In this document: piece by piece, positions 17,433 to 44,749 of the stretch
How the letters are laid out: every line of letters begins with the position of its first letter
How positions within the stretch are numbered: position 1 is the first letter of the stretch
Assembly (NCBI GenBank): GCA_052034235.1
Contig: JBPOIT010000011.1
Span: forward strand, 118,719 to 182,718
Reading direction: 5' to 3'
Length of the DNA: 64,000 nt
From: Candidatus Levyibacteriota bacterium
GTDB lineage: Bacteria > Patescibacteriota > Microgenomatia > Levybacterales > UBA12049
The notes under the pieces: model-generated
The model's input: the letters and a program-made list of their open reading frames with translations, nothing else
The model's database searches: none
What the model was told of the DNA's origin: nothing
Position numbers and translations under genes: made by a program

Positions 17433-17972
17433 CTAAACCTGCTTTTCTTTTTTAGTTGCGGAGACTCTTCCGCCTTGCCATTGGCCTCGGTATTGGCTTC
17501 CTTCGCCTTTTATTTCGTGGAAGATGACGTGGACGAAGCGGGCGCCCATTTCTATTTCGACGGTGATTGGACCTTCGTTTTTAAGACCAAAGGTGAGTTC
17601 ACCTGAATATCCTGGTTGAATGGGGCCTGTTCTTAGGAAAAGACCTGAGCGGAATGTTGTCGTTCTTGGCAAGATTACTGCTGATAGCGTGAGTGGAAGA
17701 TTGATTTTTTCAATTGTCTTCACGAGATAGAAATCGCCAGGTTTTATTTTCATTACCTGCTTTTTCTTTTTGTTATATTCCATCACCGTTTCGATATCTG
17801 GTGTTTTTCTGTGGGTTTCGCCGAGGAATGCTTCACCTGAGATTTTTATCACTTCACCCAAACGCAGATCAAAACCTGATCCTTCAGGATTAGTAAGTTC
17901 TCGCTCGCTGAGACCATCAACGAGTTTTATTTTTTTGACAAGTTGTAATAATTCTTTTGGACCAAGTACCAT
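17433..17972 (-). CDS. dCTP deaminase/dUTPase superfamily protein (second paralog)
   Basis: 179 aa with a beta-barrel dUTPase-like signature (…GSGFDLRLGE…ILPRTTTFRSG…GPIQPGYSGELTF). Confidence 0.65.
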   Translation of the reverse strand: MVLGPKELLQLVKKIKLVDGLSERELTNPEGSGFDLRLGEVIKISGEAFLGETHRKTPDIETVMEYNKKKKQVMKIKPGDFYLVKTIEKINLPLTLSAVILPRTTTFRSGLFLRTGPIQPGYSGELTFGLKNEGPITVEIEMGARFVHVIFHEIKGEGSQYRGQWQGGRVSATKKEKQV

Positions 17973-18671: not shown

Positions 18672-19277
18672 TTATTTTTCTTCGTGAATTCTGCTCTCTT
18701 CAGGAGCTTGTTGGAATTTATACTTGGCAAATTTTTTGCTCGTGTAAGGCACATCTGCTGGGGTTGATAATTCTTCAAACGTCATCGCACAAATTCGCAT
18801 ACCAACGGTGAGCTTGATAGCCATTCGTCCCAAGTTGCCAAGTTCCAAAACTGGTTTTCCATCCCAGCCTGGATCAAAAATTGAAGCGGTTGAATGAACA
18901 ACAAGTCCCAAACGTCCGAGTGACGATCGCCCTTCAAGACGACCCATGAGTGTTGGTGGAATTGTTACAGACTCAAGCGTTACAGCTAGCACAAAATCTC
19001 CCGGTTGCATAATAAAACTTCCGTCTTTTTCTACTTTAATGACTTTGGTGATTTCATTACTGTAATCTTTCTTTGCTGGATCAATGTAGGGGTATTTACT
19101 GTAATCAAAAACTCTAAAGGTATTTCCAAGACGCAAATCGATAGAACATGCTCCAAGCTGCTTATCGAAGTCAGGAGCGGGCTTGATGACGATTCGCTTT
19201 TCTTTAAGGGCTTTTTTAATATCTCTGTCTGACAAAACCATATCATAGATATTATCAAACAATTGAGCAATTGACAA
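18672..19277 (-). CDS. dcd: dCTP deaminase
   Basis: 201 aa. The N-terminus (MSIAQLFDNI…SDRDIKKAL…GACSIDLRLG) and C-terminus are typical of Dcd. Confidence 0.8.
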   Translation of the reverse strand: MSIAQLFDNIYDMVLSDRDIKKALKEKRIVIKPAPDFDKQLGACSIDLRLGNTFRVFDYSKYPYIDPAKKDYSNEITKVIKVEKDGSFIMQPGDFVLAVTLESVTIPPTLMGRLEGRSSLGRLGLVVHSTASIFDPGWDGKPVLELGNLGRMAIKLTVGMRICAMTFEELSTPADVPYTSKKFAKYKFQQAPEESRIHEEK

Positions 19278-19309: not shown

Positions 19310-20017
19310 ATGAACAAACTCAAAAACCTGCTTCTGACTGCTTCATTACTACTCTGCGGGTTATTTATTGTGCAACCAGTACATGCTGCGTCATACACGA
19401 TGTTTGGGGTCTCAAATATTCCTGACGGCCTCCCAACAGGATGGACCAATAAATCAATTTTTAATGGTGTTAACACATGTAATATTATTGACACAGAACA
19501 GGTCTATGCAGGAACGCATTCACTTTCCTGTATTGCAAGCGGACCTTTTGAATTTGCATCATTTACTTCCCCCACACTTATTAATGTTGACGCCTATACA
19601 TATCTTAATTTTTATGCCAGTGCATCACAGGATGGACAGCGCTACGAAATAGGATTTGTGGATACCTCAGGTGCCAAAATTGGCACATGGGTCGCACTCA
19701 ATACAGGAGGCGGTCCGTTGCAGGCAAAACGTTTTCAACTATACAGCTTCCCTTTAACGGTATTTGGATTACCAACACCAACTATTGGCGGTTTTGGTCT
19801 AAAGGATTCAAATGGAGCTCCTCAGCCGAAAGTATTTTTTGACGAAGTGCAGCTTTCAGATGCGCCGGGGACACCAGCTGTCGTAAATCCAGTATTGGGA
19901 CAACCTGCAACTCCAACACTCGTTCCAAAACCAAAAGGACCTTATTATCCCAATATTTCTCCATGGGTGTTTATTATTCCAGCCATTATTATCATGCTGG
20001 CAATCTTCTTTGAATGA
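19310..20017 (+). CDS. Secreted protein with a carbohydrate-binding-module-like beta-sandwich and a C-terminal TM anchor
   Basis: Has a signal peptide (…VQPVHAAS), a CBM-like end (…VFFDEVQLS), a Pro/Thr linker, and a terminal hydrophobic segment (VFIIPAIIIMLAIFF). Confidence 0.45.
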   Translation: MNKLKNLLLTASLLLCGLFIVQPVHAASYTMFGVSNIPDGLPTGWTNKSIFNGVNTCNIIDTEQVYAGTHSLSCIASGPFEFASFTSPTLINVDAYTYLNFYASASQDGQRYEIGFVDTSGAKIGTWVALNTGGGPLQAKRFQLYSFPLTVFGLPTPTIGGFGLKDSNGAPQPKVFFDEVQLSDAPGTPAVVNPVLGQPATPTLVPKPKGPYYPNISPWVFIIPAIIIMLAIFFE

Positions 20018-20081
20018 TTGATGCTTGACACCGCGATGACCCTTCTATTACGATTAAAGTACGCGCACTTAGACGTTATTT

Positions 20082-21644
20082 ATGATGCTTTTTACAAAAA
20101 AGAATGTATTTTTAGGACTTGTCGCAGTACTGGCGCTTAGTATCCCAATTACCGTCGGCATATTACAGCAGCAACAAGAAACTCGAGGAAGGGCTTCTGC
20201 TTCAACCTCTCTCGCTTTCACACCCACAACATCAACAACTGCCCCTATACAAAAGAAAATGGGAGAAACTATTTCACTCGATTTAATCGTCACCCCAAGT
20301 AACAATCTCGTTACCTTTGTGAAATTTGAACTAAAATATGACCCTACCAAACTTGAACCTGTGGGTACTGATCCGTTTACGCTCAACACGAGCGCTTTTG
20401 TTTCAAAAGACGGGCCAGTGATCACATCAGGCAGACTGATTGCTTCAGCTTCTGTCGGTTCAGATCCGACAAAAGCAATTCAAAAACCAACAAAAGTAGG
20501 GACCATTCTCTTTCGGGCTATTGGAGGAACGGGTAGTTCTCCGACGACGATTACCTTTGAGAATCTCACCCAAGCACTTTCTTCAGCGACAACAGATCAA
20601 GCTTCTGAAAATGTTATCTCAACAACATCCCCTGCGCATATCCTTATCGCAAATAATATCCAAGCATGCACAAGTAATAAATATAAAGCCGAAATGACAG
20701 CAGGACAGGAAGTCCCTACCAACACAAGTTCTGCTAGTGGAACGACAACACTTTCTCTCCTTGCTGAAAGCAAGGCAGATGCTACAACTACTGTCAAAAA
20801 TCTACAGCCTGGCGATGTAACTGGTATGTTCATCTATAGCCCTGCATCAGCTAGTGCTAAAGGCGCACAAAGAGTAACGCTTTATGCCACTGGGACATTT
20901 GCGAATCCTCATACAGCTAATGACGTTTTTATTCCTGAGGATGTACTGAATGATATTAATAGTGGTAATGCTTATGTTGGAATTACTACCAAACAATACG
21001 CAAATGGGGAGATTCGCGGAAAACTGACATGCGTCACAGGAGGTGGCAATGAAGAAACAAATCTTAATTTCGAACTTCTACTCCATGGCATCGGTTCAGC
21101 CGGAGATAATCCTAATCCAAGCGGGAGTTCTCTAAGCAATAAAAATCCATTACACCCTCAACGAAATCTTCAACTCGAGATATATGATGTTGATAACAAA
21201 CTTGTGACAAGTGTTTCTGGAGACCTTTCTCTTAATTACGAAGTTAACGGCGGAATCTTTAAAGGGTCATTGAGCCTTGGAACCAATTTCCAGGAAGGAA
21301 ATTACAATTTGAAAGTAAAATCAGACAGGTATCTTAAACGACGTGTCCCCGGCATTATTCAAATTAAACCAAAATCAGATACACGTGTTCCGAAAATTGA
21401 TTTAGTAGCGGGTGATATTAATAGTGATAATACGCTTAATGTTCTGGACTACAACGCACTTCTTGATTGTGGTTACGGCGAAATTGAACCACTCCCAATG
21501 GCAGATCCAAATGCAATTTTTAACAAAACAGAATGTCAGGCACATACACCTGCTGAGCTCATTGATCTTGATGATAACGGCATCATAAATGGACCTGATT
21601 ATAATCTGTTTATACGTGAACTTTCGGTTCAGAATGGTGACTAG
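20082..21644 (+). CDS. Surface protein with, in order, signal/TM, cohesin-like module, CHRD domain, beta-sandwich and dockerin-type double Ca-binding repeat
   Basis: The CHRD signatures are AGQEVP…YVGITTKQYANGEIRGKL. The dockerin-like segments are AGDINSDNTLNVLDYNALL and DLDDNGIINGPDYNLFIRE. The N-terminal module is shared with 25420, 27757 and 28932. Confidence 0.6.
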   Translation: MMLFTKKNVFLGLVAVLALSIPITVGILQQQQETRGRASASTSLAFTPTTSTTAPIQKKMGETISLDLIVTPSNNLVTFVKFELKYDPTKLEPVGTDPFTLNTSAFVSKDGPVITSGRLIASASVGSDPTKAIQKPTKVGTILFRAIGGTGSSPTTITFENLTQALSSATTDQASENVISTTSPAHILIANNIQACTSNKYKAEMTAGQEVPTNTSSASGTTTLSLLAESKADATTTVKNLQPGDVTGMFIYSPASASAKGAQRVTLYATGTFANPHTANDVFIPEDVLNDINSGNAYVGITTKQYANGEIRGKLTCVTGGGNEETNLNFELLLHGIGSAGDNPNPSGSSLSNKNPLHPQRNLQLEIYDVDNKLVTSVSGDLSLNYEVNGGIFKGSLSLGTNFQEGNYNLKVKSDRYLKRRVPGIIQIKPKSDTRVPKIDLVAGDINSDNTLNVLDYNALLDCGYGEIEPLPMADPNAIFNKTECQAHTPAELIDLDDNGIINGPDYNLFIRELSVQNGD

Positions 21645-21647
21645 TAT

Positions 21648-23624
21648 ATGAAATATTTCCAAAAAAGAAAAAAACTTATTCCCTTAGCTATTTTTATAGC
21701 CCTTTATCTCCTCGTTCTTGTGCCGCTTATCGTATTCAACTTGCAGCAGCGCCAAGATATTCGCAGCAAAGCACAGGTCGATCCAACACCTGGTGTGCAG
21801 CTTGCAGCAGTGTGCGGCAATGCATCTTCAGATATCGTCCTTGTGATTGATCGATCAACAAGTATGACCGGACAGAAATTCACTGACGCAAAGAATGCTG
21901 CAAAATTATTTGTCGATATTATCGATCAAGATAATAACAATTCCCGCATAAGCCTTGTGTCATATGCGGGGAACTCAACAATTAATACACCTATGACAAA
22001 TAACTTTACTTCTATTAAAACCGCGATCGACGGGTTACAACTTCAATCAGGAACTTGTATTCAATGTGCTGTTAAATCAGCAATTCAAACAATCGCAAAT
22101 AACCCTGGAGCAAACAAAAAAGTAGTTGTTTTGTTAACTGACGGACGTGCAAACCGTGTTGATGGCAATTCAACGAGCGAAACAGTCGCAGAACAAGCTA
22201 CATTAACGGCTGTGACAAACGGTCCAGCTATGCCCTACTTTACCATCGGCCTTGGATCTGACGTAAATACAAACCTTCTTCAAAATATAGCAGCAAAATT
22301 TGGAGCAAAGTACTACTTCCCTCCTACACCTGAGCATTTGAACGCAATTTATAAAGAGATCTCTGAAATTGTAGGCAAAGGTTCTGTCTCAGGGTTTGTC
22401 TTTGAAGATCTAAATGCAAACGGAGCGTTTGAAAGTACAGAGCCCAAACTACCAAATTGGCAGGTACAGGTCACACAACAAGGCACAGGGACAACGCAAA
22501 CTGTAACAAGTGATAACCTCGGTAACTATTATGCTGCCGGTCTTTGCGATGGATCACACCAAGTAAAACAAGTTGCCCAAACCGGTTGGAGACAGACATT
22601 GCCAACTGATGTTAACGGACATGTTATTACTGTGACCAATGCAAACGCGGTCATAGACAAGAACTTTGGCCAAACAAAAGCGACAAGATGTTCAGATAAG
22701 ATTGATAATGACAATAACGGATTTATAGATGAAAAAGATTCAACCTGTCACACTGATGGTAATCCAAATAATCCGAACTCATACGATCCTAACAAAGATG
22801 GCGAACGTGGTGGAAATACTTGTGCAGATTCAAAAGATAATAATGGGAACGGTTTAATTGATGGTGCAGATCCAGTATGTCATCCAGGTGGCGATATCAC
22901 AAAGCCTTGGGATCCAAACCTTCCAGAGGTTAATCCTACGCCTACGCCAACATTAACACCGACACCAACAAAAGTGCCTACTGGTACGCCAACACCAACT
23001 CCAACGAAAGTCCCAACGGGCACACCTACGCCAACACCAACTGCTGTTCCAACTTCAGTGCCAACACAAGGCTTGACGAGTTTTCAATTGACAGTTTTCC
23101 AGCACGGTATCGGATCAAGTGGTGATAATACAAATGCAGCAAGTTCGCTCAGTAATAAAAATCCTCTCAGAAAAACTGTCCCAGCAGAATTGCAATTATA
23201 TGATCTAAATAATAACCTGATCGGCGCGGGAACAGGCAAAGTGAATTATAACGAACAAACAGGCAATTACATCGGAACTATCAGTATTACACCAAATGTT
23301 TTTACAACTGGAAAATATACACTTAAGGTAAAAACTGAGGGACATTTGAGAAAACTTATGACCGGTATTCAAACAATTGTCGCCGGACAGCATAACACTT
23401 CCCTACCTGCAGTTTCACTGGTGACTGGAGATATCGACAATAATAATGCGCTGAGTATTCTTGATTACAATCTATTGCTTGACTGCTACAGTGATTTGAC
23501 TGTTGCATCAAATTGTTCTGATACCAAAAAGAAAACTTCATCAGATCTTAACGATGACGGTCCTGTTAACCAAATTGACTACAATCTCTTCTTAAGAGAA
23601 ATTGCAACGCAACCTGGAGAATAA
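21648..23624 (+). CDS. Surface protein with, in order, signal/TM, VWA domain, SdrD-B-like domain, two TSP3-like Cys-bracketed Ca-binding repeats, Pro/Thr linker, beta-sandwich and dockerin-like module
   Basis: Has MIDAS DRSTSM…LLTDGRAN, and Ca-binding repeats DKIDNDNNGFIDEKD and DSKDNNGNGLIDGAD. The linker is PTPTPTLTPTPTKVPTGTPTPTPT. The C-terminal module is homologous to those of 20082, 25420 and 27757. Confidence 0.6.
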   Translation: MKYFQKRKKLIPLAIFIALYLLVLVPLIVFNLQQRQDIRSKAQVDPTPGVQLAAVCGNASSDIVLVIDRSTSMTGQKFTDAKNAAKLFVDIIDQDNNNSRISLVSYAGNSTINTPMTNNFTSIKTAIDGLQLQSGTCIQCAVKSAIQTIANNPGANKKVVVLLTDGRANRVDGNSTSETVAEQATLTAVTNGPAMPYFTIGLGSDVNTNLLQNIAAKFGAKYYFPPTPEHLNAIYKEISEIVGKGSVSGFVFEDLNANGAFESTEPKLPNWQVQVTQQGTGTTQTVTSDNLGNYYAAGLCDGSHQVKQVAQTGWRQTLPTDVNGHVITVTNANAVIDKNFGQTKATRCSDKIDNDNNGFIDEKDSTCHTDGNPNNPNSYDPNKDGERGGNTCADSKDNNGNGLIDGADPVCHPGGDITKPWDPNLPEVNPTPTPTLTPTPTKVPTGTPTPTPTKVPTGTPTPTPTAVPTSVPTQGLTSFQLTVFQHGIGSSGDNTNAASSLSNKNPLRKTVPAELQLYDLNNNLIGAGTGKVNYNEQTGNYIGTISITPNVFTTGKYTLKVKTEGHLRKLMTGIQTIVAGQHNTSLPAVSLVTGDIDNNNALSILDYNLLLDCYSDLTVASNCSDTKKKTSSDLNDDGPVNQIDYNLFLREIATQPGE

Positions 23625-23636
23625 AACTTAACGAGT

Positions 23637-25352
23637 ATGAAAAAGGTGAAAAAAAGAACAACTCATCAAATGAAACAAATAAAAAAAATAAAAAATAAGG
23701 ACTCATTTCTAAAGCAAATGATTGGTTTTCGATGGCAAATTGCTGTCGTAGCGCTTTTTGCTATTGTCGCTTTTGTTGCAGTTTACTTCACTTTCCAAAC
23801 CAAAGCTGCAACGGCATGGCCACTTAAAGTGAGTCAAAATGGACGCTACCTCGTAGATCAAAATAATAAGCCATTCTTTTACACAGCAGATACCGCATGG
23901 ACGCTTGTAAACAAACTCACTGCTGCTTCTGCAAAAAAATTAATTGATGTACGTAAAGAGCAAGGATTTAACGCAATTCAGGCAAGTCTGAGCGGATTTG
24001 GAAGAACAATACCAGGCCCACAAGGAACTCCTTTCCAAAATGGTGATTTAACAAAACCCAACGAAGAATATTTTAAAGTAGTTGATGAAATTGTGAAATA
24101 CGCAGAATCGAAAGATATGGTGCTCGTGATGACACCATTTTGGCTCGGAGACAATGGCGGCAAATTTGGTGGAACATTGCCATCAGATGCAGAAATGCAA
24201 AGTTACGCTGCTTTTCTAGGGAACCGATATAAAAATTCTGGTAACATCATCTGGTTTGTCGGTGGAGACGATGCAGCAGACAGCAATGAAGCAGCAATAA
24301 AACTTTTGGGTAGCGCACTAAAAGCTGCTGATCCTAATCATCTTATAACTGCTCATAACGACGCTAAGACTTTCCAATATAAAAATGAATCTTGGTACAG
24401 TTTGTATGCATTCCAATGGAATGCCAATAGTCCGCCATACAGTTATAAAGATGTTGACGATGGCTATAACCAAACTCCGATAAAACCTGTTTTTAACATG
24501 GAGCCTGCGTATGATCCTTCTACGTGTTGTGGAACTGATAAGGATACGACACCACAAAAAAACAGACGAAGCGGCTGGTGGTCAATACTTTCTGGAGCTA
24601 TGGGTGTTGTTTATGGCGGACCACGAGAAGCTTGGAATGCAAGTGAACCATTAAATCTAGATGCTCTTAACAGGGTTCCAGCTACTCACACAGCAAACAT
24701 TCAAAAAATTCTTAGTGTTTATCCATGGGAGAAATTAGTTCCGGATAACAATAAGGATAGCTTTACCGTAGTAACTGGCGGCAGAGGGACATATGACAAT
24801 GATGATTTTGCAACAGCTGCACGCGCAAGCGATGGCAGTCTCATTGTTGCGTATATACCTACTGGAAGAACATTGACTGTAGACATGTCCAAACTATCAG
24901 GTCCAGCAACTGCATCCTGGATAGATCCAACAAATGCTGCAAAAACTGATGCAGGTGCCAATTTGCCAAATAGCGGAACAAAAGATTTTGCTCCACCAAG
25001 TGCCAACGCAGGTGGCGATAGTGACTTTGTCCTTATTCTCACAACAGGTACCACTACCATATCTACAGTCCCAAATGTATCTCAACCGATAACAAGTCCG
25101 CCATATGTATGTCTTGGTCCATGTGTTCCTTCTGTATCACCGGGAGTTTCTATAGTACCAAGTAACGCAGCACCTGTTCCGTCTGAAGATCCACTCGATC
25201 CCGATAACCCGACAGATCCAGATATTAACCCTTCAACACAGCCTAATCCAATAGATGATGGCGACAACAATCAAAAACCGAAAGGCCTCTTTGCACTCAT
25301 CCTGGAGTTCTTCCGAATACTACTCGAATTTCTTCTAAGCCTTTTTAGATAA
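23637..25352 (+). CDS. Putative glycoside hydrolase (DUF4038/GH140-like TIM-barrel) with N-terminal TM and a Pro-rich C-terminal tail
   Basis: The segment WPLKVSQNGRYLVDQNNKPFFYTADTAWTL…EQGFNAIQ… resembles DUF4038-type hydrolases. The C-terminus is Pro/Asp-rich and then hydrophobic. Confidence 0.5.
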   Translation: MKKVKKRTTHQMKQIKKIKNKDSFLKQMIGFRWQIAVVALFAIVAFVAVYFTFQTKAATAWPLKVSQNGRYLVDQNNKPFFYTADTAWTLVNKLTAASAKKLIDVRKEQGFNAIQASLSGFGRTIPGPQGTPFQNGDLTKPNEEYFKVVDEIVKYAESKDMVLVMTPFWLGDNGGKFGGTLPSDAEMQSYAAFLGNRYKNSGNIIWFVGGDDAADSNEAAIKLLGSALKAADPNHLITAHNDAKTFQYKNESWYSLYAFQWNANSPPYSYKDVDDGYNQTPIKPVFNMEPAYDPSTCCGTDKDTTPQKNRRSGWWSILSGAMGVVYGGPREAWNASEPLNLDALNRVPATHTANIQKILSVYPWEKLVPDNNKDSFTVVTGGRGTYDNDDFATAARASDGSLIVAYIPTGRTLTVDMSKLSGPATASWIDPTNAAKTDAGANLPNSGTKDFAPPSANAGGDSDFVLILTTGTTTISTVPNVSQPITSPPYVCLGPCVPSVSPGVSIVPSNAAPVPSEDPLDPDNPTDPDINPSTQPNPIDDGDNNQKPKGLFALILEFFRILLEFLLSLFR

Positions 25353-25419
25353 ATAGTTTAGGAAAACTCATCTTGACAGTCTAAGCCTAAATTCATTATG
25401 CTTACAGTGATACTGTCTT

Positions 25420-27753
25420 ATGTCTTTTTTTACAAAAAAACGATTAGTGCTTGGTGGATTATTTTTACTCGCTATCGTTCTGCCGGTTACTATCCTTTTC
25501 TTTCAAAATCAACAAAATATAAGATCCCGTGCTGATAAAACTGTCGTGCTATCTTATGAACCAGGATCTACGGCAGGCGCTCCCCTTCAAATCCCAGCAG
25601 GAAGTACATTCTCGCTTGATGTCTTTGTTGATCCTGGAGCAAGTGCAGTATCGTATGTCAAAGCAGAACTTGTGTATGACACTGGGAAATTTGAAGCGGC
25701 TGGCGGGTTTATTCCTAACCAGGAAGCATTCTCTCAAGTTATAGAATCAACCGATGCTCCTGGGAAAGTAACTACCACACTTTCTGTAGGATCTGATACA
25801 TCCAAAGCACTTAAGGCTAAAACAAAAATTGGCACAATCTCATTGCGGGCATTATCAACTGTCGCGACCAACTCAGAAGGCACGATTAACTTTGGTGCAG
25901 GTTCACAAGCACTCGCTATAAGTGCCAACAGCTCATTTAACGAAAATGTTATAGCAAATACAGTTCCCGCAGTTATTCGTTTCAATCAACCTTCAAATGT
26001 CTGTGGTAATGCATCAAGCGATACGATGCTTGTTATCGACAGATCTGGAAGTATGGCTGATAAAGAAGGTACGAGTGGTACCAAAATCTCAAACGCAAAA
26101 ACTGCAGCCAGTAACTTTATCGATATCGTTGCAAGAGACGCAGCCAATAAATTCGGCCTCGTTTCATTCGCTACTACCGCTAGTTTGAACAGTCCAATTG
26201 CGAGTGATGCAAACAGCGTAAAATCACAAATAAATTCACTTTCAACCTCATCATATACCTGTATTGAATGCGGGATACTCAAGGCAAATCAGGAAATAGC
26301 CGCAAAGAAACGGGCTGGAACTAAAAATATTGTCATCCTCTTAACTGATGGTCGTGCAAATGTTGTTGAAGGAAATACTGCAACTGCAGCAGAAGCAACA
26401 GCAGAACTTAAAGCGACAAATGCTGCCATAAGCGGATATAATGCCAACGGAACAATCTTTTTTACGATAGGCCTCGGGAAAGATGTTAATTCAGAATTCC
26501 TTACCAAACTTGCAGAAAAAACGGGAGGTCAATACTACTACAGCCCAACAACAGATCAGCTCAACGGCATTTATAATCAAATCTCTCAAATAATCGCCAA
26601 AGGCAGTGTCGCGGGGAACGTCTTTAATGATACCAATGCCAATGGGACACTTGATCAAGGCGAAGAAAACCTCCCAGGTGCAATTGTGCAGCTTCACTCC
26701 TCTACCCAATCACCTCAATCAGTGACATCTGATAGCACAGGGAATTTCGCAATTACTAATCTCTGTGACGGAAACTATACCTTAAAGCAAGTTCTCCAGT
26801 CAGGCTGGAAACAGACTTTCCCGGCAAACAGCGGCGACCATACAATTGCAATCGCAAATGGCAGTGCAATAACTAACAAGAATTTTGGCAACAATAAAGG
26901 TACACGCTGCTCTGATGGGATTGATAACGACGGCAATGGTTTTATCGACACAAAGGATTCTACCTGTCATACAGATGGCGACCCAACGAATCCTAATTCC
27001 TATGATCCTAACAAAGATGGCGAACGTGGTGGAAATACTTGTGCAGACTCAATTGATAACAACAATGACGGCAAGATAGATGGTGCGGATCCAGTTTGTC
27101 ACACGGACGGCGATCCTACAAAACCTTGGGATCCAAACTTGCCTGAGAATGCCAAACCAACACCAACCCCGACTGCGGCACCAACAATTCCTCCACCTGC
27201 AAATGCTGCTCAGTTCAATTTGGATGTCATACTGCACGGTATAGGATCTGGCGGAGACAATGCAAACCCAACTGCAAATAGTTTCAGTAATAAAACGCCA
27301 CTCAACCCTATACAACAAGCATCTATCAGAGTCTTTAACGCAAGTAATCAATTGTTTGCAACAGCTTCAGGCGTTGTCACATACAGTAGTGCAAGCGGCA
27401 GCTATAAAGGTGTGTTAACAGCTGATAAAGCGATCAGTGCAGGACCATATATTATCCGTGTAACTATTGATAAACATCTTACACGCCTTGTCCCGGGAAT
27501 CCAGTCACTTAAAGAAAATGTTGACACATCGATTTCTTCAATTCAAGTTGTAGCTGGAGATATAACCCGCGATAACAGACTCGATATCCGTGATTATAAC
27601 AATATTCTCGATTGTTATAGTGATTTATTGCCGCCTGTTTCTTGTGATGATCCGCAAAAGAAAAAAGATACTGATATTAATGACGACGGCAATGTTGGAC
27701 AATTTGATTACAACTTGTTCCTGCGTGAACTTTCTACACAACCGGGTGAATAA
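25420..27753 (+). CDS. Surface protein with, in order, signal/TM, cohesin-like module, VWA, SdrD-B-like domain, TSP3-like Ca repeats, Pro/Thr linker, beta-sandwich and dockerin-like module
   Basis: Carries the combined architecture of 20082 and 21648: MIDAS DRSGSM…LLTDGRAN, DGIDNDGNGFIDTKD, DSIDNNNDGKIDGAD, and a C-terminal DINDDGNVGQFDYNLFLRE. Confidence 0.6.
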   Translation: MSFFTKKRLVLGGLFLLAIVLPVTILFFQNQQNIRSRADKTVVLSYEPGSTAGAPLQIPAGSTFSLDVFVDPGASAVSYVKAELVYDTGKFEAAGGFIPNQEAFSQVIESTDAPGKVTTTLSVGSDTSKALKAKTKIGTISLRALSTVATNSEGTINFGAGSQALAISANSSFNENVIANTVPAVIRFNQPSNVCGNASSDTMLVIDRSGSMADKEGTSGTKISNAKTAASNFIDIVARDAANKFGLVSFATTASLNSPIASDANSVKSQINSLSTSSYTCIECGILKANQEIAAKKRAGTKNIVILLTDGRANVVEGNTATAAEATAELKATNAAISGYNANGTIFFTIGLGKDVNSEFLTKLAEKTGGQYYYSPTTDQLNGIYNQISQIIAKGSVAGNVFNDTNANGTLDQGEENLPGAIVQLHSSTQSPQSVTSDSTGNFAITNLCDGNYTLKQVLQSGWKQTFPANSGDHTIAIANGSAITNKNFGNNKGTRCSDGIDNDGNGFIDTKDSTCHTDGDPTNPNSYDPNKDGERGGNTCADSIDNNNDGKIDGADPVCHTDGDPTKPWDPNLPENAKPTPTPTAAPTIPPPANAAQFNLDVILHGIGSGGDNANPTANSFSNKTPLNPIQQASIRVFNASNQLFATASGVVTYSSASGSYKGVLTADKAISAGPYIIRVTIDKHLTRLVPGIQSLKENVDTSISSIQVVAGDITRDNRLDIRDYNNILDCYSDLLPPVSCDDPQKKKDTDINDDGNVGQFDYNLFLRELSTQPGE

Positions 27754-27756
27754 CGT

Positions 27757-28881
27757 ATGTCAAAAAAAACGCTTCTCGTGATCGGTCTTGTAGTCGTTGC
27801 ACTCGTAGGTATACCTGCTGCGCTGCTTGTCTCTCAACAGACACAAAATATCCGTTCAAAAGCATCTGGATCAACAACGCTTGCTATTACTCCTGGCACA
27901 ACTGAATCAACACCGTTACAAAAAGGTATTGGTGAAACGGCTTCATTTGAGGTTTGGGTAAAGCCAGGAGATAACATGCCTTCGATGATCAAAATGGAGA
28001 TTAATTATGATGCTACGTACTTTGAAAATACGCCAAATACCTTTACGGTAAATAATGAGGCCTTTCCCGTGACCGTTGAGGGTCCTGTTGTAACTGATGG
28101 AAAAATACTTGTTGCTGTATCGATTGGCTCAGATAGTACAAAAGCAATTCAAAAAGAAACCAAAGTCGGCACACTCACTCTGAAAACAAAAGCAGTCACT
28201 TCTTCCCCCACGAAAATCTCATTGGGTACAATTTCTGAAGTTCTTTCAGTCGCGACAACCGATCAGGCGGCAGAAAACGTGCTTGCGACAACACTCCCCG
28301 CGTTTGTCATCGTTGCAGAAGCCCCGACACCGACAGCAACAACACTCACTTTCACAGCTTTCCTTCATGGCATTGGCAAAAGCGGTGATAATGCCAATCC
28401 AAGCGCTCACAGCATGAGTAATAAAAATCCCCTTCACGAATCACGGCAAATCTTTATTGAGGTTATTAACGATCAAAATATCGTGACAGCTACAAAAGCA
28501 GGAATCCTTACTTATAATAAAGACAATGGTAACTTTACCGGCACTTTTGATTTTGGACAATCATTACCTGAAGGCGACTATATCATAAAATTAAAAGAGC
28601 CAACTCATCTTCGTAAACTTGTCGACGGAATCATATATATTAAACCCCAGCAGAGCAATCAAATTCCGGAGGTCGCCTTTGTTGCAGGCGATGTGAATAA
28701 CGATAATACACTCAATATACTTGATTATAATATCATTTCCGGCTGTTACAGTGATTTACTTCCCGCAGTTGCCTGTGACGATCTCAAAAAAGAAATCTCA
28801 GATTTAAATGACGACGGGAAAGTAAACCAATACGACTATAACCTTTTCCTCAGAGAAATCATTGTCCAATATGGCGGATAA
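27757..28881 (+). CDS. Surface protein with signal/TM, cohesin-like module, beta-sandwich and dockerin-like module
   Basis: The N-terminus is homologous to 20082 (…GSDSTKAIQKETKVGTLTL…ATTDQAAENV…). The C-terminus has AGDVNNDNTLNILDYNII and DLNDDGKVNQYDYNLFLREI. Confidence 0.6.
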   Translation: MSKKTLLVIGLVVVALVGIPAALLVSQQTQNIRSKASGSTTLAITPGTTESTPLQKGIGETASFEVWVKPGDNMPSMIKMEINYDATYFENTPNTFTVNNEAFPVTVEGPVVTDGKILVAVSIGSDSTKAIQKETKVGTLTLKTKAVTSSPTKISLGTISEVLSVATTDQAAENVLATTLPAFVIVAEAPTPTATTLTFTAFLHGIGKSGDNANPSAHSMSNKNPLHESRQIFIEVINDQNIVTATKAGILTYNKDNGNFTGTFDFGQSLPEGDYIIKLKEPTHLRKLVDGIIYIKPQQSNQIPEVAFVAGDVNNDNTLNILDYNIISGCYSDLLPAVACDDLKKEISDLNDDGKVNQYDYNLFLREIIVQYGG

Positions 28882-28931
28882 TATCAATAGTCTGCTCGAC
28901 AAAACAAGCTCCTAGATATTACAATAGAGGC

Positions 28932-29561
28932 ATGTCAAAAACCTCAGTCGCGCTTATTGTACTTTTTTTTATCTCTCTAACAACACTGCTCATATTGAAT
29001 GCAAAATATTCTTCAAACCCTGTCTTACCGTCATTTCCTAAAATGTTTCCGACCCAAACAGTTATTTCAGAAAGTACGCTTTCTCTTTCTCCAACAATCC
29101 TTAACGTACAACCAGGCAAGCGAACATCGCTGCAAATAATAATTGAAAATAGTGGACAAAAGCCCTCACTTATCCAAATGGAACTCGCGTATGATCCTTC
29201 CGTTATCAGTAACGTTTCATTTATCCCAGGATCGTTTTATCAAAATCCAGATGTCCTACTCACAACCGTTAACGCAAGAAATGGCAGAATTTCTTATGCT
29301 ATCGCTCCAAGTAAAGGCCAAGAAGATACAACGGGTTCAAATGTCGTCACAACGCTGATGTTCACTCCCCGACTAACCACGAGACAAACAACTATCTCCT
29401 TTATGCCAAAAACCCTTGTGCAAACTGAAGAGACAAAAAATACGTTAAAAACAACATTTGGAGCAACAATAAAATTACAATCTGGATTTGAACCTGTTCC
29501 TGCATCTCCTTCTGCGATTATTCAACCTGAAGTACCGTATCAATTACCTACTGCGTTTTGA
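28932..29561 (+). CDS. Membrane-anchored cohesin-like single-module protein
   Basis: Has an N-terminal TM, then a module matching the N-terminal modules of 20082, 25420 and 27757 (SLQIIIENSGQKPSLIQMELAYDPSVI…). No C-terminal dockerin segment is present. Confidence 0.45.
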   Translation: MSKTSVALIVLFFISLTTLLILNAKYSSNPVLPSFPKMFPTQTVISESTLSLSPTILNVQPGKRTSLQIIIENSGQKPSLIQMELAYDPSVISNVSFIPGSFYQNPDVLLTTVNARNGRISYAIAPSKGQEDTTGSNVVTTLMFTPRLTTRQTTISFMPKTLVQTEETKNTLKTTFGATIKLQSGFEPVPASPSAIIQPEVPYQLPTAF

Positions 29562-30404
29562 TTAGTTTGTGAGTGTGGGTTTGTGAAGTCTGTGGGCAAA
29601 TCTTTGGAGTTTACGTAGGGTGAGCCTCTTGAGTATTGGCATACGTGAAGATTGCGGCTTGGGGTCAACATTGCCGACATGCATAACTTTTGGAGCTTCC
29701 CCATCAAAAGAAACTGTATAAATCGGCAAATGTAGGGCTAACAGCTGCAGTGTCGTTTGGAGCTGCAAATCTGACTCAGTTTTCATATCTTCATACGTGA
29801 CACCTTCTACGTGCATTTCTTTTACCAATTTTTTAAGGAATTCATTATCACGGGTTTCATCATAAATAAAATACATTTGCGAAAGTTTTGGATTATCTGC
29901 TAGAACAGTATGTGAGGTACTTTGTATAATCAGCACTCCTTGTTCCTTATGCTCTCCTTCGAGTTTGAGCATGTGAACTCCCTTTGAAATTTCTTTTACG
30001 TTTCTTGCGTACGCAATTACTTTTTCAACGTCTTCACACTTCACGTCATAATCGTCACAAAACTTACGATTCGCAGCCTTTGCCATATGCCCACATCCGA
30101 TGAGCCCGATATGGGTTGTTGCATCGGGATCAGTATGATGATCTGTGTGCATACAAAAACCGCTGTCATCTTTGACAGCGTTATAAACAGCGTTGAAACA
30201 TTGTTCTGGTGTAAGTCCAAGGTTCTTCTTCCTATTAACCGCCATGAGGGCCATGACATAGCCACCGTCTCCACCGGGTCTGGCAATCATACCTGTTGCT
30301 TGTTCAGGTAAATATCTACCATCTACACATTTTCGTCCCTCTTTTGCGGGTACAACGCTTGCTTTGACGTATGCTTCAATATCCATAAAAATTAAGTATA
30401 CCAT
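29562..30404 (-). CDS. Hypothetical protein with conserved Cys/His/Asp clusters (possible metal-binding enzyme)
   Basis: Has KCVDGRY, RPGGDGG, HTDHHTD and LIGCGHM motifs with no family recognised. The true start is probably MDIEAY (30386). Confidence 0.4.
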   Translation of the reverse strand: MVYLIFMDIEAYVKASVVPAKEGRKCVDGRYLPEQATGMIARPGGDGGYVMALMAVNRKKNLGLTPEQCFNAVYNAVKDDSGFCMHTDHHTDPDATTHIGLIGCGHMAKAANRKFCDDYDVKCEDVEKVIAYARNVKEISKGVHMLKLEGEHKEQGVLIIQSTSHTVLADNPKLSQMYFIYDETRDNEFLKKLVKEMHVEGVTYEDMKTESDLQLQTTLQLLALHLPIYTVSFDGEAPKVMHVGNVDPKPQSSRMPILKRLTLRKLQRFAHRLHKPTLTN

Positions 30405-35791: not shown

Positions 35792-36587
35792 ATCGCAGTA
35801 AGAACTATTCTGCTCCCCACTGGACGTGCGGATTTCCCGCATCCAGCGAGTCTCTTATAAAAGCCTCTTTGAGAAGTTTTATCTTCTCAATGCCAGAAAT
35901 GGTTAAATGATGCTTTTGAAGCATGAGATTTGCTACGATACAAAATAGAGCAAAACTCTGCTTTTTCTTTGCTTGTAGAGGATATTTTGTAAAGAATGGA
36001 ATAATTTTTGTTGTAATATCTTTTAAGTTTGAGACCTTATATTTGTAATGCGGTCTCCACTTTTTATACCTCTCATATTTGAGATGGTAGATATTGCCAC
36101 AAGCAAACGATTCTTTAATCCTTTCTAAAATTTCCAAATCATCTTCTCGTAATTCTATTTCGAAGATGAGTCTTACTTCAAGCAAACGATTGTTTTTGTG
36201 TTTGTTAAAACTAACACTAAAACAACCTTCACCATCAACTAATCCAACAATATAATAAGGATTTAATTTTGAGTTCATCCCTTCCTCTAAAATCATTATA
36301 CATAATTCTAAAGTACTATGGAATCTGCTGACTTCCTATAGCCGATTATAGTTCTGATGCATATAGGATCTCCTTGGGTCACTTAAAAGACAATTTCAAA
36401 CATCCTAAGAAGCTTTTCTAGTCTCTTCCTCTTAGTACACGTAAGAGTCGAGAAGCTTTGTTTATCTTAGGCTGCTCTTCGTTTCATCGAACCCTTCAGA
36501 CTTTCCCTTACGGGAGAAGTCCTGTTCTTCAACTACAAGAATGGATTTTCACCATTTTGTCGGTTAAGCTGCCAAGCGCATTTAATT
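35792..36587 (-). mobile_element. Intron inserted in the 16S rRNA decoding-region helix (near E. coli position ~1395), probably group I
   Basis: The sequence between the TTGTACA and CACCGCCCGTC halves of the conserved 16S motif has no rRNA similarity and contains a homing-endonuclease ORF. Confidence 0.75.
35805..36296 (-). CDS. LAGLIDADG-family homing endonuclease encoded within the 16S intron
   Basis: 163 aa with an IVGLVDGEGCFSV motif (a single LAGLIDADG motif is visible). Confidence 0.8.
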   Translation of the reverse strand: MILEEGMNSKLNPYYIVGLVDGEGCFSVSFNKHKNNRLLEVRLIFEIELREDDLEILERIKESFACGNIYHLKYERYKKWRPHYKYKVSNLKDITTKIIPFFTKYPLQAKKKQSFALFCIVANLMLQKHHLTISGIEKIKLLKEAFIRDSLDAGNPHVQWGAE

Positions 36588-36885
36588 TGTACAAGACCCG
36601 AGAACGTATTCACAGCGGCCTACTGATCCGCGATTACTACTGATTCCTCCTTCATGCAGTCGGGTTGCAGACTGCTATCTGAACTGAGGCGAAATTTCTG
36701 AGATTTGCTTGCCGTCGCCGGCTTGCTGCTCTTTGTTCTTCGCCATTGTAGGGTGTGTGTAACCCAGGGCATAAGGGCCGTGCTGACTTGACGTCTTCCC
36801 CTCCTTCCTTCCCGATATGATCGGGACCGTCCGAAATGAATATGTAACATTTCGCGGGGGTTGCGCTCGTTTCCCCACTTAAGGG

Positions 36886-36929
<44 letters not shown>

Positions 36930-37038
36930 GTACCATCCTTACGGATCTACCAATGTTTCCAAAGGTATTAAACGGTATCATGTCAAGCCCTGGTAAGGTT
37001 TTTCGCTTTGTCTCGAATTAAACCACACGCTCCACCAG

Positions 37039-37070
<32 letters not shown>

Positions 37071-37870: not shown

Positions 37871-37913
<43 letters not shown>

Positions 37914-38100
37914 AAAAAAAATTTGGGTTTCAGATTTCTTTATTTGTATAAGGAATAATCTGAAAAAAATTCCTACCACATCTTGATTGTCAAACGCATG
38001 ATTATCCAAATCACACGCTTGAACTGTTGCGTGAATAAGTGTGTTGTGTATTTCGTTTTTAAAGAGCAATAGTATTTATTGTAGAGCGTTTTGAGATAAA

Positions 38101-44747: not shown

Positions 44748-44749
44748 AA

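Follow-up and report, generated by a model that had tools for sequence, protein, structure and literature searches.

According to our analysis, the genes g1 to g7, seven codirectional open reading frames (ORFs) on the plus strand within 10 kb of a 64,000-nucleotide window from a Levybacteria-related CPR bacterium (tiny, uncultured), probably encode a noncellulosomal, Ca2+-dependent, two-tier cohesin–XDoc system predicted to anchor adhesins and enzymes at the cell surface. A surface-anchoring device is probable, rather than the "minimal cellulosome" of the original prediction, since each protein has at most one cohesin and the dockerins mostly carry adhesin domains. The seven starts (19310, 20082, 21648, 23637, 25420, 27757, and 28932) match that prediction exactly, all peptides quoted in it are present in the translations, and every product has the basic N terminus and single hydrophobic segment described there. 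Successive genes are separated by 64, 3, 12, 67, 3, and 50 nt. A promoter-like site, TTGACA-18-TACGAT, lies in the g1-g2 gap (20025 to 20054, plus strand), and similar sites precede g5 (25373 to 25402) and g7 (28896 to 28925); these three, with 10 of 12 matches, occupy the only three gaps of at least 50 nt. Such sites number 20 overall, which is not above shuffled sequences (25 ± 4.2), and their position at the three longest gaps gives only a hint that they may be real promoters.

Four exported proteins, g2, g3, g5, and g6, end in an XDoc whose two Ca2+-binding F-hand loops are intact. The conserved C-terminal module of about 180 amino acids (aa) predicted in them was confirmed (38 to 48% identity, E values of 1e-33 to 1e-48, BLASTP); it is an X-module plus dockerin dyad (XDoc), which had been missed. 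It is matched best by the CohI9–X–DocII end of Clostridium thermocellum CipA: a profile of the module finds CipA X-DocII (2B59_B, E value of 1e-6), and the whole AF2 model of g6 (pLDDT 87.2) aligns with the CohI9–X–DocII fragment 4FL4_I (Foldseek, E value of 2.4e-13). Together with the Pfam Dockerin_1 score of g6 (26.2 bits, cut-off 22.9) and the Ca2+-binding residues, 92 to 100% conserved in both loops across 145 related modules, these matches bear out the dockerin-type Ca-binding nature of the C-terminal segments. The g3 and g2 dockerins score 16.6 and 10.7 bits, and the Pfam scores of the cohesin and dockerin modules of g2, g3, and g5 are under the gathering cut-offs or give no match.

The architecture of g6 (27757 to 28881), a minimal Coh-XDoc protein, consists of an export signal (aa 1 to 36), an Nmod-class cohesin (nt 27868 to 28320), an 8-aa Pro/Thr linker, an X module (nt 28342 to 28686), and a short-loop dockerin (nt 28687 to 28878). 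In g2 (20082 to 21644), an export signal with a Q..R..A motif is followed by an Nmod-class cohesin (nt 20205 to 20651), the predicted CHRD domain (nt 20685 to 21026; Pfam E value of 2e-12), an X module (nt 21060 to 21410), and a long-loop dockerin (nt 21411 to 21641). The products of g3 (21648 to 23624) and g5 (25420 to 27753), which are 48% identical over 620 aa (BLASTP), both have an export signal, and their VWA/MIDAS and SdrD_B assignments hold, the latter above the gathering score. In g3, which has no cohesin, the VWA domain (nt 21831 to 22343; E value of 8e-22) carries the DxSxS motif DRSTS at aa 68 and precedes SdrD_B (nt 22386 to 22643; 33.5 bits), two acidic repeats (nt 22689 to 22751 and 22821 to 22883), a Pro/Thr linker, an X module (nt 23079 to 23426), and a short-loop dockerin (nt 23427 to 23621). 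In g5, an Nmod-class cohesin (nt 25543 to 25977) comes before the VWA domain (nt 26023 to 26577; E value of 1e-16; DRSGS at aa 207), SdrD_B (nt 26614 to 26847; 45.4 bits), two acidic repeats (nt 26908 to 26970 and 27040 to 27102), an X module (nt 27211 to 27555), and a short-loop dockerin (nt 27556 to 27750). The Cys-bracketed acidic repeats had been read as TSP3-like; we reject this identity, since they match the "acidic double-disulfide repeat" NF033662 (45.3 bits in g3 and 41.6 bits in g5; NCBIfam cut-off, 41 bits) and Pfam TSP_3 gave no match at an E value of ≤1. Cohesin and dockerin on one polypeptide are real and recurrent: three of the four XDoc proteins start with one cohesin, and many of the 445 homologues of g6 share its Coh-XDoc architecture.

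The identification of the N-terminal modules of g2, g5, g6, and g7 as cohesins is upheld by Pfam (37.4 bits for g7 and 22.9 bits for g2, with a cut-off of 24.1), by profile matches to PDB cohesins, and by the AF2 model of the g6 module, which superposes on cohesins in Foldseek with TM scores of 0.74 to 0.81 and root mean square deviations (rmsd) of 2.5 to 3.0 Å. However, the four do not form one clearly homologous set, as had been claimed. This is true of g2, g5, and g6 (38 to 45% mutual identity, E values of 1e-31 to 1e-45; 45% for g2 versus g6 and 38 to 40% for g5 against either), whereas the relation of g7 to them was overstated, since g7 is much more distant (26% identity to g6 over 86 aa, E value of 5e-4) and lacks the GSDxTKA motif. 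The cohesins fall into two classes, Nmod and g7, about 20% identical to each other, and g7 represents a separate membrane-anchored class that had escaped notice. Its small protein (28932 to 29561) comprises an N-terminal hydrophobic segment (nt 28932 to 29012) with neither a Q..R..A motif nor a signal-peptidase-type site, a Pro/Ser/Thr stalk (nt 29013 to 29105), the cohesin (nt 29106 to 29459), and a short tail. The transmembrane segment, stalk, and cohesin are common to all 39 members of the family, whose profile matches cohesin 6KG8 over the full domain (E value of 8.6e-7).

The remaining two genes encode proteins with C-terminal hydrophobic tails of their own and no XDoc. In g1 (19310 to 20017), a signal peptide (aa 1 to 26) precedes a β-jelly-roll domain (aa 27 to 185; nt 19388 to 19864), a Pro-rich linker, and an invariant tail, PYYPNISPWVFIIPAIIIMLAIFFE (nt 19946 to 20014), conserved across 19 homologues. 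No Pfam or NCBIfam match was found for g1, and its predicted CBM-like character is supported at the level of the modeled fold (AF2, pLDDT 81.5), the best Foldseek match being CBM8 7T7Y (TM score of 0.81, rmsd of 2.4 Å), followed by CBM11, CBM30, and CBM29. A homologue is likewise first in the cluster in loci L006, L011, and L015. In g4 (23637 to 25352), an N-terminal hydrophobic segment, a GH140-type catalytic domain (nt 23832 to 24716; PF13204, E value of 3.4e-66), a Collagen_bind_2 β-sandwich (nt 24792 to 25040; E value of 1.8e-13), a Pro-rich region, and the tail (nt 25281 to 25349) were identified, with neither cohesin nor dockerin; the proposed DUF4038-like hydrolase is correct, PF13204 (formerly DUF4038) being now named "Apiosidase-like." An orthologue in locus L013 has an equal cluster position and a similar tail. 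No such tail was found in any of 86 XDoc proteins, but the rule that a protein without XDoc has its own C-terminal anchor fails in relatives, where such a tail is missing from 20 of the 26 exported cluster proteins without XDoc.

The predicted conservation of the locus was also confirmed: in about 35 Levybacteria-like genomes or loci the cluster lies 3' of thyA-dcd-tmk-dcd, a single chromosomal site at which it has been inherited vertically, and its last gene typically encodes a small cohesin of the g7 type, stalked and anchored in the membrane. Dockerins, like cohesins, fall into two classes, a division that had also been missed; the two differ at positions 10 and 11 of repeat 2, the classical specificity positions. 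The long-loop form, with 21 residues between a conserved Cys pair in g2, is essentially limited to one copy per cluster, carried by the first gene with a cohesin (21 of 22 genes with it also carry a cohesin). In 32 of 39 cases, an XDoc gene directly precedes the g7-type cohesin gene at a distance of less than 400 nt, the upstream gene has a short-loop dockerin in 26 of 34, and seven loci have g7-type cohesins and short-loop XDoc only. From gene adjacency and these partial loci we infer that short-loop dockerins would pair with g7-class cohesins and long-loop dockerins with Nmod cohesins. The opposite pairing fits a rare-with-rare stoichiometry.

In the mechanism that we propose, XDoc proteins would be secreted, with cleavage following the conserved site ...R-S-(R/K)-A. 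Their short-loop XDoc would plug, in a Ca2+-dependent manner, into the membrane-anchored g7 cohesin, and XDoc-tagged hydrolases, the VWA/MIDAS adhesins g3 and g5, and the adaptor protein g6 would thereby be kept at the surface. The cargo within the locus is adhesin-type, and the XDoc-tagged enzymes would be encoded elsewhere in the genome. In relatives, this XDoc, which defines about 860 to 1,900 clusters at 50% identity, is found on GH5, GH16, GH26, and GH114 enzymes, peptidases, and lectins; the breadth of its cargo and its nearly constant place at the extreme C terminus count in favor of such a system. At the N termini of g2, g5, and g6, the cohesins would be second-tier sockets, most likely for the single long-loop XDoc of g2, giving short polar head-to-tail assemblies with adhesin and glycan-binding domains projecting from the cell. 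These assemblies may serve to attach the cell to a surface coated with polysaccharide or protein, for example that of a host cell or a particle, and to process this surface. With a length of only about 30 residues, the stalk of g7 may be too short to clear a wall.

Each XDoc protein has a long N-terminal segment (about 20 hydrophobic residues, modeled by AF2 as a helix with pLDDT of 85 to 91) that may stay uncleaved and act as an anchor, in which case the topology would differ. Since every XDoc protein of the locus has one, all the proteins might sit on such signal anchors, with cohesin–XDoc contacts cross-linking neighbors in cis into an S-layer-like lattice or coat. We hold this to be very unlikely, because the XDoc proteins keep a small-x-small site, S-R/K-A, 8 to 10 residues past the hydrophobic core and directly ahead of the first cohesin strand, whereas all 39 g7-type proteins lack it, and because, if every protein were membrane anchored, there would be no need for a cohesin devoted to anchoring. 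Another reading, unlikely in our view, is that the two folds do not pair at all, XDoc being a Ca2+-dependent wall- or glycan-binding module or a secretion/sorting tag and the cohesin-like domains Ig-like spacers or adhesive domains. It is consistent with the behavior of XDoc as a generic tag, almost always at the extreme C terminus of very diverse cargo; with weak matches of the X module to FlgD_ig, Por_Secre_tail, and gingipain C-terminal domains; with the location of the most conserved motif, HGIGxxGDNxNP...SNKNP, which has no known counterpart, in the X module rather than the dockerin; and with the AF2 model of g6, whose cohesin is not docked on XDoc (its pTM of 0.51 indicates no confident packing between them). 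However, genes for XDoc and for cohesins occur in tight, recurrent linkage, each partner has two classes, and the dockerin helix DYNLFLRE is 88 to 99% conserved, as expected with a conserved protein partner. In addition, CPR bacteria have a monoderm envelope and are not known to possess a T9SS.

Cellulosomes of wood-degrading bacteria are built from cohesin and dockerin modules, and a true minimal cellulosome would here degrade cellulose or hemicellulose by means of dockerin-tagged plant-cell-wall hydrolases on cohesin scaffolds. The GH140-type hydrolase and CBM-fold protein embedded in the locus agree with this, as do relatives in which XDoc is fused to a GH5 cellulase, GH16, GH26, GH39, CBM4_9, or CBM9, and cohesin/dockerin genes of Microgenomates have already been noted, and called cellulosomal, in metagenome and metaproteome work (PMC9123182). 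Nevertheless, we consider it improbable, since the locus fails the definition: the window and about 1 Mb of related loci yielded no scaffoldin with multiple cohesins, every protein there having one at most and the g7 homologues all being about 200 aa long; there is no CBM3; and g4 and g1 have no dockerins. Moreover, about one-third of the XDoc cargo is VWA adhesin (26 of 72 proteins), and the M4 and M11 peptidases, GH114, GH99, and peptidoglycan (PG)-binding domain in the rest, which also includes CBM96, ricin, PA14, and lectin domains, are not specific to the plant cell wall.

The predicted two-tier tethering system that we favor resembles the ScaE/XDoc system of Ruminococcus flavefaciens and the amylosome of Ruminococcus bromii more than it does a cellulosome. 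In R. bromii, single-cohesin proteins and a ScaE-like single-cohesin anchor have been shown experimentally, as has a protein with a dockerin that binds the cohesin of that same protein (PMC4611034).

The seven consecutive plus-strand genes that the original prediction had placed in this cluster were all found, at exactly the coordinates claimed: g1 (19310-20017), g2 (20082-21644), g3 (21648-23624), g4 (23637-25352), g5 (25420-27753), g6 (27757-28881), and g7 (28932-29561). Successive genes from g1 to g7 are only 64, 3, 12, 67, 3, and 50 nt apart, and every encoded protein has the expected basic N terminus with a single hydrophobic segment. The N-terminal module said to be shared by four of the proteins is clearly homologous in g2, g5, and g6 (38 to 45% identity; BLASTP, E values of 1e-31 to 1e-45), while the fourth, g7, is a marginal member, aligning with g6 at 26% identity across 86 aa (BLASTP, E = 5e-4). 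The C-terminal modules of g2, g3, g5, and g6 are 38 to 48% identical to one another (BLASTP), as claimed, and g3 and g5 align across 620 residues at 48% identity (BLASTP). Three of the five best sigma-70-like matches (20025-20054, 25373-25402, and 28896-28925, plus strand, each with 10 of 12 matching positions and an 18-nt spacer) lie in the three longest intergenic gaps of the cluster, a placement which hints at the sub-operons g1, g2 to g4, g5-g6, and g7; total counts in the promoter and terminator scan were no higher than in shuffled sequences.

According to Pfam, the cohesin family PF00963 is matched by g7 with 37.4 bits, over the gathering cut-off of 24.1, and by g2 slightly under it, with 22.9 bits; g5 and g6 gave no direct PF00963 match, yet they are 38 to 45% identical to g2. 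The homologues of g7, one of which bears the name Candidatus Levybacteria, are all 121 to 209 aa long, and a precomputed PF00963 match is present on 12 of 16. In profile searches of the PDB, the N-module profile matched the cohesin CaCohA2 (6KG8/6KGC, E = 4e-3), and the g7-family profile matched 6KG8 over the full domain length (E = 8.6e-7). The AlphaFold2 (AF2) model of g6, built with 57 homologues in the input (mean pLDDT 87.2), comprises a helix (residues 3-26), two beta-sandwiches (40-187 and 196-308), and three helices within residues 321-370. Its residues 40-187, modeled with a pLDDT of 93 to 98, superimpose in Foldseek on 6KGC_A (TM 0.79, rmsd 2.6 Å), on 1G1K and 2VO8 as well, and on many cohesins in all with TM scores of 0.74 to 0.81 and rmsd values of 2.5 to 3.0 Å. 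The nine-stranded flattened beta-sandwich (jelly roll) that characterizes cohesins was found both in the g6 model and through the g7-family profile; Pfam, profile, and fold matches agree on the cohesin identity proposed for the N-terminal modules.

The C-terminal module had been described as a beta-sandwich followed by dockerin-type segments; the dockerin stood, and the whole is better defined as a dyad of an X module and a dockerin (XDoc) of about 180 aa. Dockerin_1 (PF00404) is matched by g6 with 26.2 bits, above the gathering cut-off of 22.9, and below it by g3 (16.6 bits) and g2 (10.7 bits), with no PF00404 match in g5. All four proteins carry a duplicated F-hand whose two 12-residue Ca2+ loops (D-x-N/D-x-D, with D at position 12) are intact, in line with the Ca-binding role suggested for these segments. 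In relatives, PF00404 was matched at E ≤ 1e-3 by 34 of 46 and 50 of 72 XDoc proteins in two Pfam censuses, and across 145 modules the Ca2+-loop residues are 92 to 100% conserved. In the AF2 model of g6, the Ig-like X module (the beta-sandwich at 196-308) abuts the dockerin, whose helices span residues 321-330, 342-348, and 358-370. A profile of the four C modules matched the X-module/type II dockerin of CipA (2B59_B, 3KCP_A, and 5G5D_B; E values of 1e-6 to 1e-5), the alignment to 2B59_B crossing the X module into the dockerin, and the match to CipA X-DocII was reproduced with a 57-sequence family profile. X module and dockerin occur together in all of about 150 ORFs but one, which breaks off after the X module. 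On sequence and predicted fold, the modules of the cluster can be assigned to the cohesins, the dockerins, and the XDoc dyads.

Two features of the dyad deserve mention. Conservation within the XDoc peaks at the start of the X module, where the motif L-H-G-I-G-x-x-G-D-N-x-N-P...S-N-K-N-P is 86 to 98% conserved in 145 modules; the corresponding loop (28366-28443, plus strand, g6 residues 204-229, with equivalents in g2, g3, and g5) is modeled by AF2 with a pLDDT below 50, and its role could lie in metal binding, in contact with a cohesin, or in processing. We know of no counterpart of this HGIG...SNKNP loop in other X modules. The two dockerin repeats are joined by a linker that lies between two invariant Cys residues (100% and 98% in 145 modules; 28744-28776, plus strand, Cys330 and Cys340 of g6, with equivalents in g2, g3, and g5), which suggests a disulfide-stapled dockerin. 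To our knowledge, clostridial dockerins have no such pair.

Most of the other domains proposed for the cluster were recovered by Pfam. VWA (PF00092) scores above cut-off in g3 (78.7 bits, E = 8e-22) and g5 (62.1 bits, E = 1e-16), with the MIDAS motif DxSxS present as DRSTS at residue 68 of g3 and DRSGS at residue 207 of g5. SdrD_B (PF17210, cut-off 29.7) is matched in the same two proteins with 33.5 and 45.4 bits, respectively, and CHRD (PF07452) in g2 with 48.4 bits (cut-off 24.1, E = 2e-12) over model positions 2-117 of 117. In g3 and g5, the acidic repeats bracketed by Cys had been taken for TSP3-like ones but belong elsewhere: thrombospondin type 3 (PF02412) had no match at E ≤ 1 among the cluster proteins, and the repeats match instead the NCBIfam entry NF033662, "acidic double-disulfide repeat" (45.3 and 41.6 bits, cut-off 41). 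The embedded DUF4038-like glycoside hydrolase, g4, matches PF13204, now named "Apiosidase-like" (224.5 bits, cut-off 26.5, E = 3e-66), followed by a C-terminal Collagen_bind_2 domain (50.6 bits, cut-off 22), as is usual for GH140-type enzymes, and is predicted to be a GH140-type hydrolase. No family match was obtained for g1 in Pfam or NCBIfam; its AF2 model (pLDDT 81.5) is a CBM-type beta-jelly-roll closest to the CBM8 structure 7T7Y (TM 0.81), followed by CBM11, CBM30, and CBM29, and is consistent with the CBM-like protein originally proposed.

In XDoc proteins, the N-terminal hydrophobic segment is followed by Q-x-x-Q-x-(I/T)-R-x-x-A, of which Q30, R33, and A36 (g6 numbering) are nearly invariant in 57 sequences. 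Small residues at -3/-1 (S-R/K-A), three residues ahead of the first cohesin strand, would form a signal-peptidase I site. The whole signal, consisting of a basic N terminus, about 20 hydrophobic residues, and Q..Q..R..A, lies at 20082-20200, 21648-21770, 25420-25535, and 27757-27865 on the plus strand and also in the ORF 44963-46030 on the minus strand of the window, a protein with no Pfam match. The motif is enriched among XDoc ORFs, of which 54 of 150 have it, and occurs in 17 other ORFs, 44963-46030 among them, and in none of 39 g7-type proteins; the 17 non-XDoc ORFs rule out a dedicated XDoc sorting signal, and by its sequence distribution the motif appears to be a lineage-typical export signal that is not specific to XDoc. 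Its absence from the g7 type would fit a protein that stays anchored in the membrane while the others are released. The 39 g7-type proteins share a hydrophobic N-terminal segment, a variable Pro/Ser/Thr stalk of 25 to 45 residues, and then the cohesin. The LPxT[GASN] motif was found in none of the seven cluster proteins, and a sortase pilus was dropped as an explanation since all seven are without LPXTG.

A C-terminal hydrophobic segment is present on g1 and g4, the two exported proteins of the cluster that, besides g7, have no XDoc, and on none of 86 XDoc proteins. The tail of g1 (19946-20014, plus strand), PYYPxISPWVFIIPxIIIxLAIFFE, is invariant in 19 homologues; that of g4 (25281-25349, plus strand) has KPKG or NRGF before the hydrophobic stretch, in g4 and in its orthologue at the related locus L013. 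These tails may be C-terminal membrane anchors or a novel sorting signal. The g1 tail was discarded as a general signal, being confined to the g1 family, and a rule by which each exported protein has either an XDoc or its own C-terminal anchor was likewise set aside: it holds for g1, g4, and their orthologues, and 20 of 26 non-XDoc proteins of relatives are tailless. A third conserved motif, located at the extreme C terminus, ...(Q/E)R(L/P)DF(I/V)LN(L/A)P(E/D)F...Q(S/N)T..E(E/D)(V/A)AP, absent from the window, is common to XDoc-less cluster proteins of relatives, mostly of SdrD_B type (L004:5998-7284, L005:5694-7439, L010:6006-7283, L013:4623-5564, L017:3799-6732, L025:8270-9868, and L060:2852-6952).

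Elsewhere in the window, a 16S rRNA gene (36540-37919, minus strand) spans Rfam model positions 1-1533 in 1,380 nt and is directly followed, on the same strand, by a group-II-intron D1-D4 match (36278-36354) and, next to these, by a LAGLIDADG homing-endonuclease ORF (35805-36296, minus strand; Pfam, E = 2.3e-24). By sequence, the stretch 35805-37919 looks like an rRNA operon bearing an intron and an endonuclease, of a kind frequently described in CPR bacteria. A SAM-I/IV riboswitch match (44781-44919, minus strand; 45.8 bits, cut-off 41.1) overlaps the start assigned to the ORF 43585-44895 (minus strand, no Pfam match), and this start is probably wrong.

When one genome per species was scanned for related loci, 75 were obtained, many of them ending at contig edges, mostly from metagenome-assembled genomes (MAGs) which their record titles, the source of the names used here, call Candidatus Levyibacteriota/Levybacteria or Patescibacteria. 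Loci syntenic with those of Levybacteria (L004, L010-L015, L017, L020, L021, L024, L025, and others) are titled "uncultured Gammaproteobacteria bacterium," and some "Lysobacterales" or "Sulfotelmatobacter," titles that probably stem from placeholders or wrong taxonomic assignments in bulk submissions of MAGs. Just upstream of the cluster are two dCTP-deaminase-like paralogues (17433-17972 and 18672-19277, minus strand) with a thymidylate kinase between them and thyA adjoining. Conservation in relatives, one of the checks proposed for the locus, held: about 35 loci are syntenic, with thyA, dcd, tmk, and dcd upstream and a homologue of 29562-30404 downstream, which argues that the cluster is vertically inherited at one chromosomal site and that the window belongs to a Levybacteria-like CPR bacterium; the dCTP-deaminase/thymidylate-kinase block marks the insertion site of the cluster.

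Module HMMs built here were run over every ORF of the 75 loci. Where a cohesin is present, it is N-terminal and the XDoc is C-terminal, and in neither the window nor the 75 loci is there an ORF with more than one cohesin. The gene order that recurs is [g1] - [Coh-XDoc] - [VWA-SdrD_B-(repeats)-XDoc] - ... - [Coh-VWA-...-XDoc] - [Coh-XDoc] - [small cohesin]. Homologues of g6 number 445 at E ≤ 1e-3, many of them cohesin-XDoc proteins like g6 itself. An exhaustive search of 1.84 billion representatives with the XDoc-module profile retrieved 2,584 proteins at E ≤ 1e-3, 1,880 at E ≤ 1e-10, and 861 at E ≤ 1e-30, in which the XDoc is almost always at the extreme C terminus. The XDoc cargo consists, by Pfam census, of VWA (26 of 72), SdrD_B (25 of 72), and CHRD (3 of 72); fusions in relatives further include hydrolases (GH5, GH16, GH26, GH39, GH99, GH114, and GH115_C), peptidases (M4 and M11), and beta-helix, CBM4_9, CBM9, CBM96, ricin, PA14, and FG-GAP domains. 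Given so diverse a cargo, XDoc acts as a general C-terminal exoproteome tag of the lineage.

By overall identity, the XDoc modules could not be divided into subtypes, forming one broad family (43 to 56%) with no sharp split; two dockerin classes are visible only by the length of the loop between the conserved Cys pair, which is 9 residues in 101 dockerins (short loop, as in g3, g5, and g6) and 21 in 22 (long loop, as in g2; consensus CGYGxIxPLPMxDPNxxFNxxxC, n = 22). The long-loop form is essentially limited to the first cohesin-bearing gene of the cluster, the g2 orthologue, and is accompanied by a cohesin in 21 of 22 cases. The long-loop form also departs from the short-loop one at positions 10-11 of the second repeat (Q-F/Y versus S-T/P/F) and at a few helix positions; in cellulosomes, dockerin specificity is classically determined by positions 10-11. 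The cohesins fall into two classes as well: those at the N termini of g2, g5, and g6 and their relatives are 37 to 47% identical to one another, irrespective of the accompanying dockerin class, and 19 to 20% identical to the g7 class.

The most economical reading of these data would be that cohesins and XDoc assemble on the cell surface in two tiers and in a Ca2+-dependent manner. The membrane anchor would be g7, which would bind the short-loop XDoc of the VWA adhesins g3 and g5, of the adaptor g6, and of hydrolases encoded elsewhere; a second tier of sockets would be provided by the cohesins at the N termini of g5, g6, and g2, and its most likely occupant would be the one long-loop XDoc, that of g2. 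We infer this pairing of classes from gene adjacency: 32 of 39 g7-type genes follow an XDoc gene within less than 400 nt, and among 34 genes immediately 5' of g7, 26 encode a short-loop XDoc and 2 a long-loop one. Within the sampled stretch, seven loci have no cohesins but those of the g7 type and no XDoc but the short-loop form. The reverse pairing is also possible, in which the long loop would go with g7 and the short loop with the N-terminal cohesins, giving extensible chains; it agrees with a stoichiometry in which rare pairs with rare. Within a single g6 chain, the AF2 model (pTM 0.51) gives no confident docking of the cohesin on the XDoc.

It is also conceivable, although we consider it rather unlikely, that the proteins with one cohesin and one XDoc together build a polar filament held by non-covalent, Ca2+-dependent contacts, a "cohesin-dockerin pilus." Its base would be the cohesin of g7, anchored in the membrane; g2, g5, and g6 (Coh-XDoc) would polymerize head to tail into the shaft, and XDoc proteins without a cohesin, either the VWA/MIDAS adhesin g3 or XDoc-tagged hydrolases, would cap the tip. 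Support for such a filament comes from the module grammar, in which the cohesin is always N-terminal, the XDoc always C-terminal, and neither is present more than once. If true, it would be a self-assembling tether with exchangeable tips by which an ultra-small CPR cell attaches to and digests the surface of a host cell.

The resemblance to a minimal cellulosome that had been suggested for the locus did not survive. The window and the 75 related loci encode no multi-cohesin scaffoldin, CBM3 had no Pfam match among the cluster proteins, the CBM-fold domain sits on the separate and presumably self-anchored g1, and the local hydrolase g4 has no dockerin, so that membership among the cellulosomes fails; dockerin-bearing hydrolases occur in relatives as GH5-, GH16-, GH26-, GH39-, GH99-, and GH114-XDoc fusions. 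Cohesin and dockerin genes called cellulosomal have reportedly been found in Ca. Roizmanbacterium by Geesink et al. in 2020, as cited in PMC9123182. For Ca. Shapirobacterales (Microgenomates), of the same superphylum, expressed cohesin and dockerin proteins have been read as components of a cellulosome (PMC9123182); unlike here, the treatment in the accessible text of that report is at annotation level, without locus architecture, XDoc, anchor cohesin, classes, or VWA cargo. A dockerin-domain protein is essential in a cultivated Saccharibacterium (PMC10633639), and Patescibacteria go unmentioned in a 2024 genome survey of bacteria displaying cellulosomes. None of the following turned up in the searchable literature: a conserved locus of this kind, an anchor cohesin, an XDoc tag as an obligatory feature, VWA cargo, a limit of one socket per protein, or a division of cohesins and dockerins into two classes. 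Cohesin and dockerin genes in Microgenomates being already known, the cluster is not a new principle and is of interest to CPR and cellulosome specialists; the published "cellulosome" label for such Microgenomates genes does not hold for this locus.

How CPR/Patescibacteria attach to partners or substrates is largely obscure, and few of their surface proteins carry an annotation. The locus offers a lineage-wide assembly system built of modules with well-understood binding chemistry, present in about 35 syntenic genomes and about 860 to 1,900 tag-bearing protein clusters. XDoc appears to mark the surface-retained exoproteome, comprising VWA adhesins, glycoside hydrolases, peptidases, and lectins, and the list of XDoc proteins is therefore a ready source of candidates for interaction with hosts or substrates in Levybacteria. 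This divergent family, with its obligatory X module, disulfide-bracketed linker, and two classes each of cohesin and dockerin, could supply orthogonal parts for designer assemblies.

Among known systems, that of Ruminococcus flavefaciens has an anchor, ScaE, to which ScaB and the adhesin CttA attach by their XDoc, and a monovalent adaptor, ScaC. The Levybacterial locus resembles the ScaE/XDoc (type III) arrangement in that a cell-bound single-cohesin anchor would receive X-dockerin dyads, resembles CttA in having an XDoc client that is an adhesin and not an enzyme, and resembles ScaC in its small adaptors with one cohesin and one dockerin; the ScaC and ScaE cohesin structures 5LXV and 2ZF9 are among the Foldseek matches of g6. 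It differs in its anchor, a predicted N-terminal hydrophobic segment with a stalk instead of LPXTG/sortase, in having no multi-cohesin ScaA/ScaB, in carrying an X module on every dockerin, those of enzymes included, with an invariant dockerin Cys pair, in its VWA/MIDAS adhesin cargo, and in its CPR host with a genome of about 1 Mb. The best match to g6 in sequence and structure is the C terminus of Clostridium thermocellum CipA, which has the same order of cohesin, linker, X module, and dockerin (4FL4_I, CohI9-X-DocII; whole length, 353 columns, E = 2.4e-13 in Foldseek); identity is only about 16%, and the nine cohesins and CBM3 of CipA contrast with at most one cohesin and no CBM3 here. SdbA-type type II cohesins, to which the CipA C terminus binds, are anchored by SLH repeats, whereas g7 has a hydrophobic segment and no SLH domain, and is in this respect not a type II partner.

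Gram-positive bacteria assemble pili by sortase with VWA tip adhesins, such as RrgA and SpaC. These share a polar modular logic with the Levybacterial proteins, among which the base would have a cohesin only, the shaft a socket and a plug, and the VWA/MIDAS cap a plug only, but assembly here would be non-covalent and Ca2+-dependent, and sortase signals are lacking; the pilins BcpA and EbpB are among the weaker fold matches of g6, with TM scores of 0.2 to 0.3 that reflect generic Ig-fold similarity only. In the amylosome of Ruminococcus bromii (Sca2 anchor), a ScaE-like anchor with a single cohesin binds the dockerins of enzymes and peptidases and so has a general role in anchoring them at the surface, and the dockerin of Amy4 binds its own cohesin, which permits multimerization (PMC4611034). 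Like the present locus, the amylosome is non-cellulosomal, with single-cohesin proteins and with cohesin and dockerin on one chain; unlike it, its bivalent protein is the enzyme Amy4, where adaptors or VWA adhesins are found here, its dockerins have no obligatory X module, and it belongs to Firmicutes with a sortase anchor and measured interactions, while the system described here is known from sequence and models. By analogy, the single-cohesin systems of R. flavefaciens and R. bromii are its closest working counterparts.
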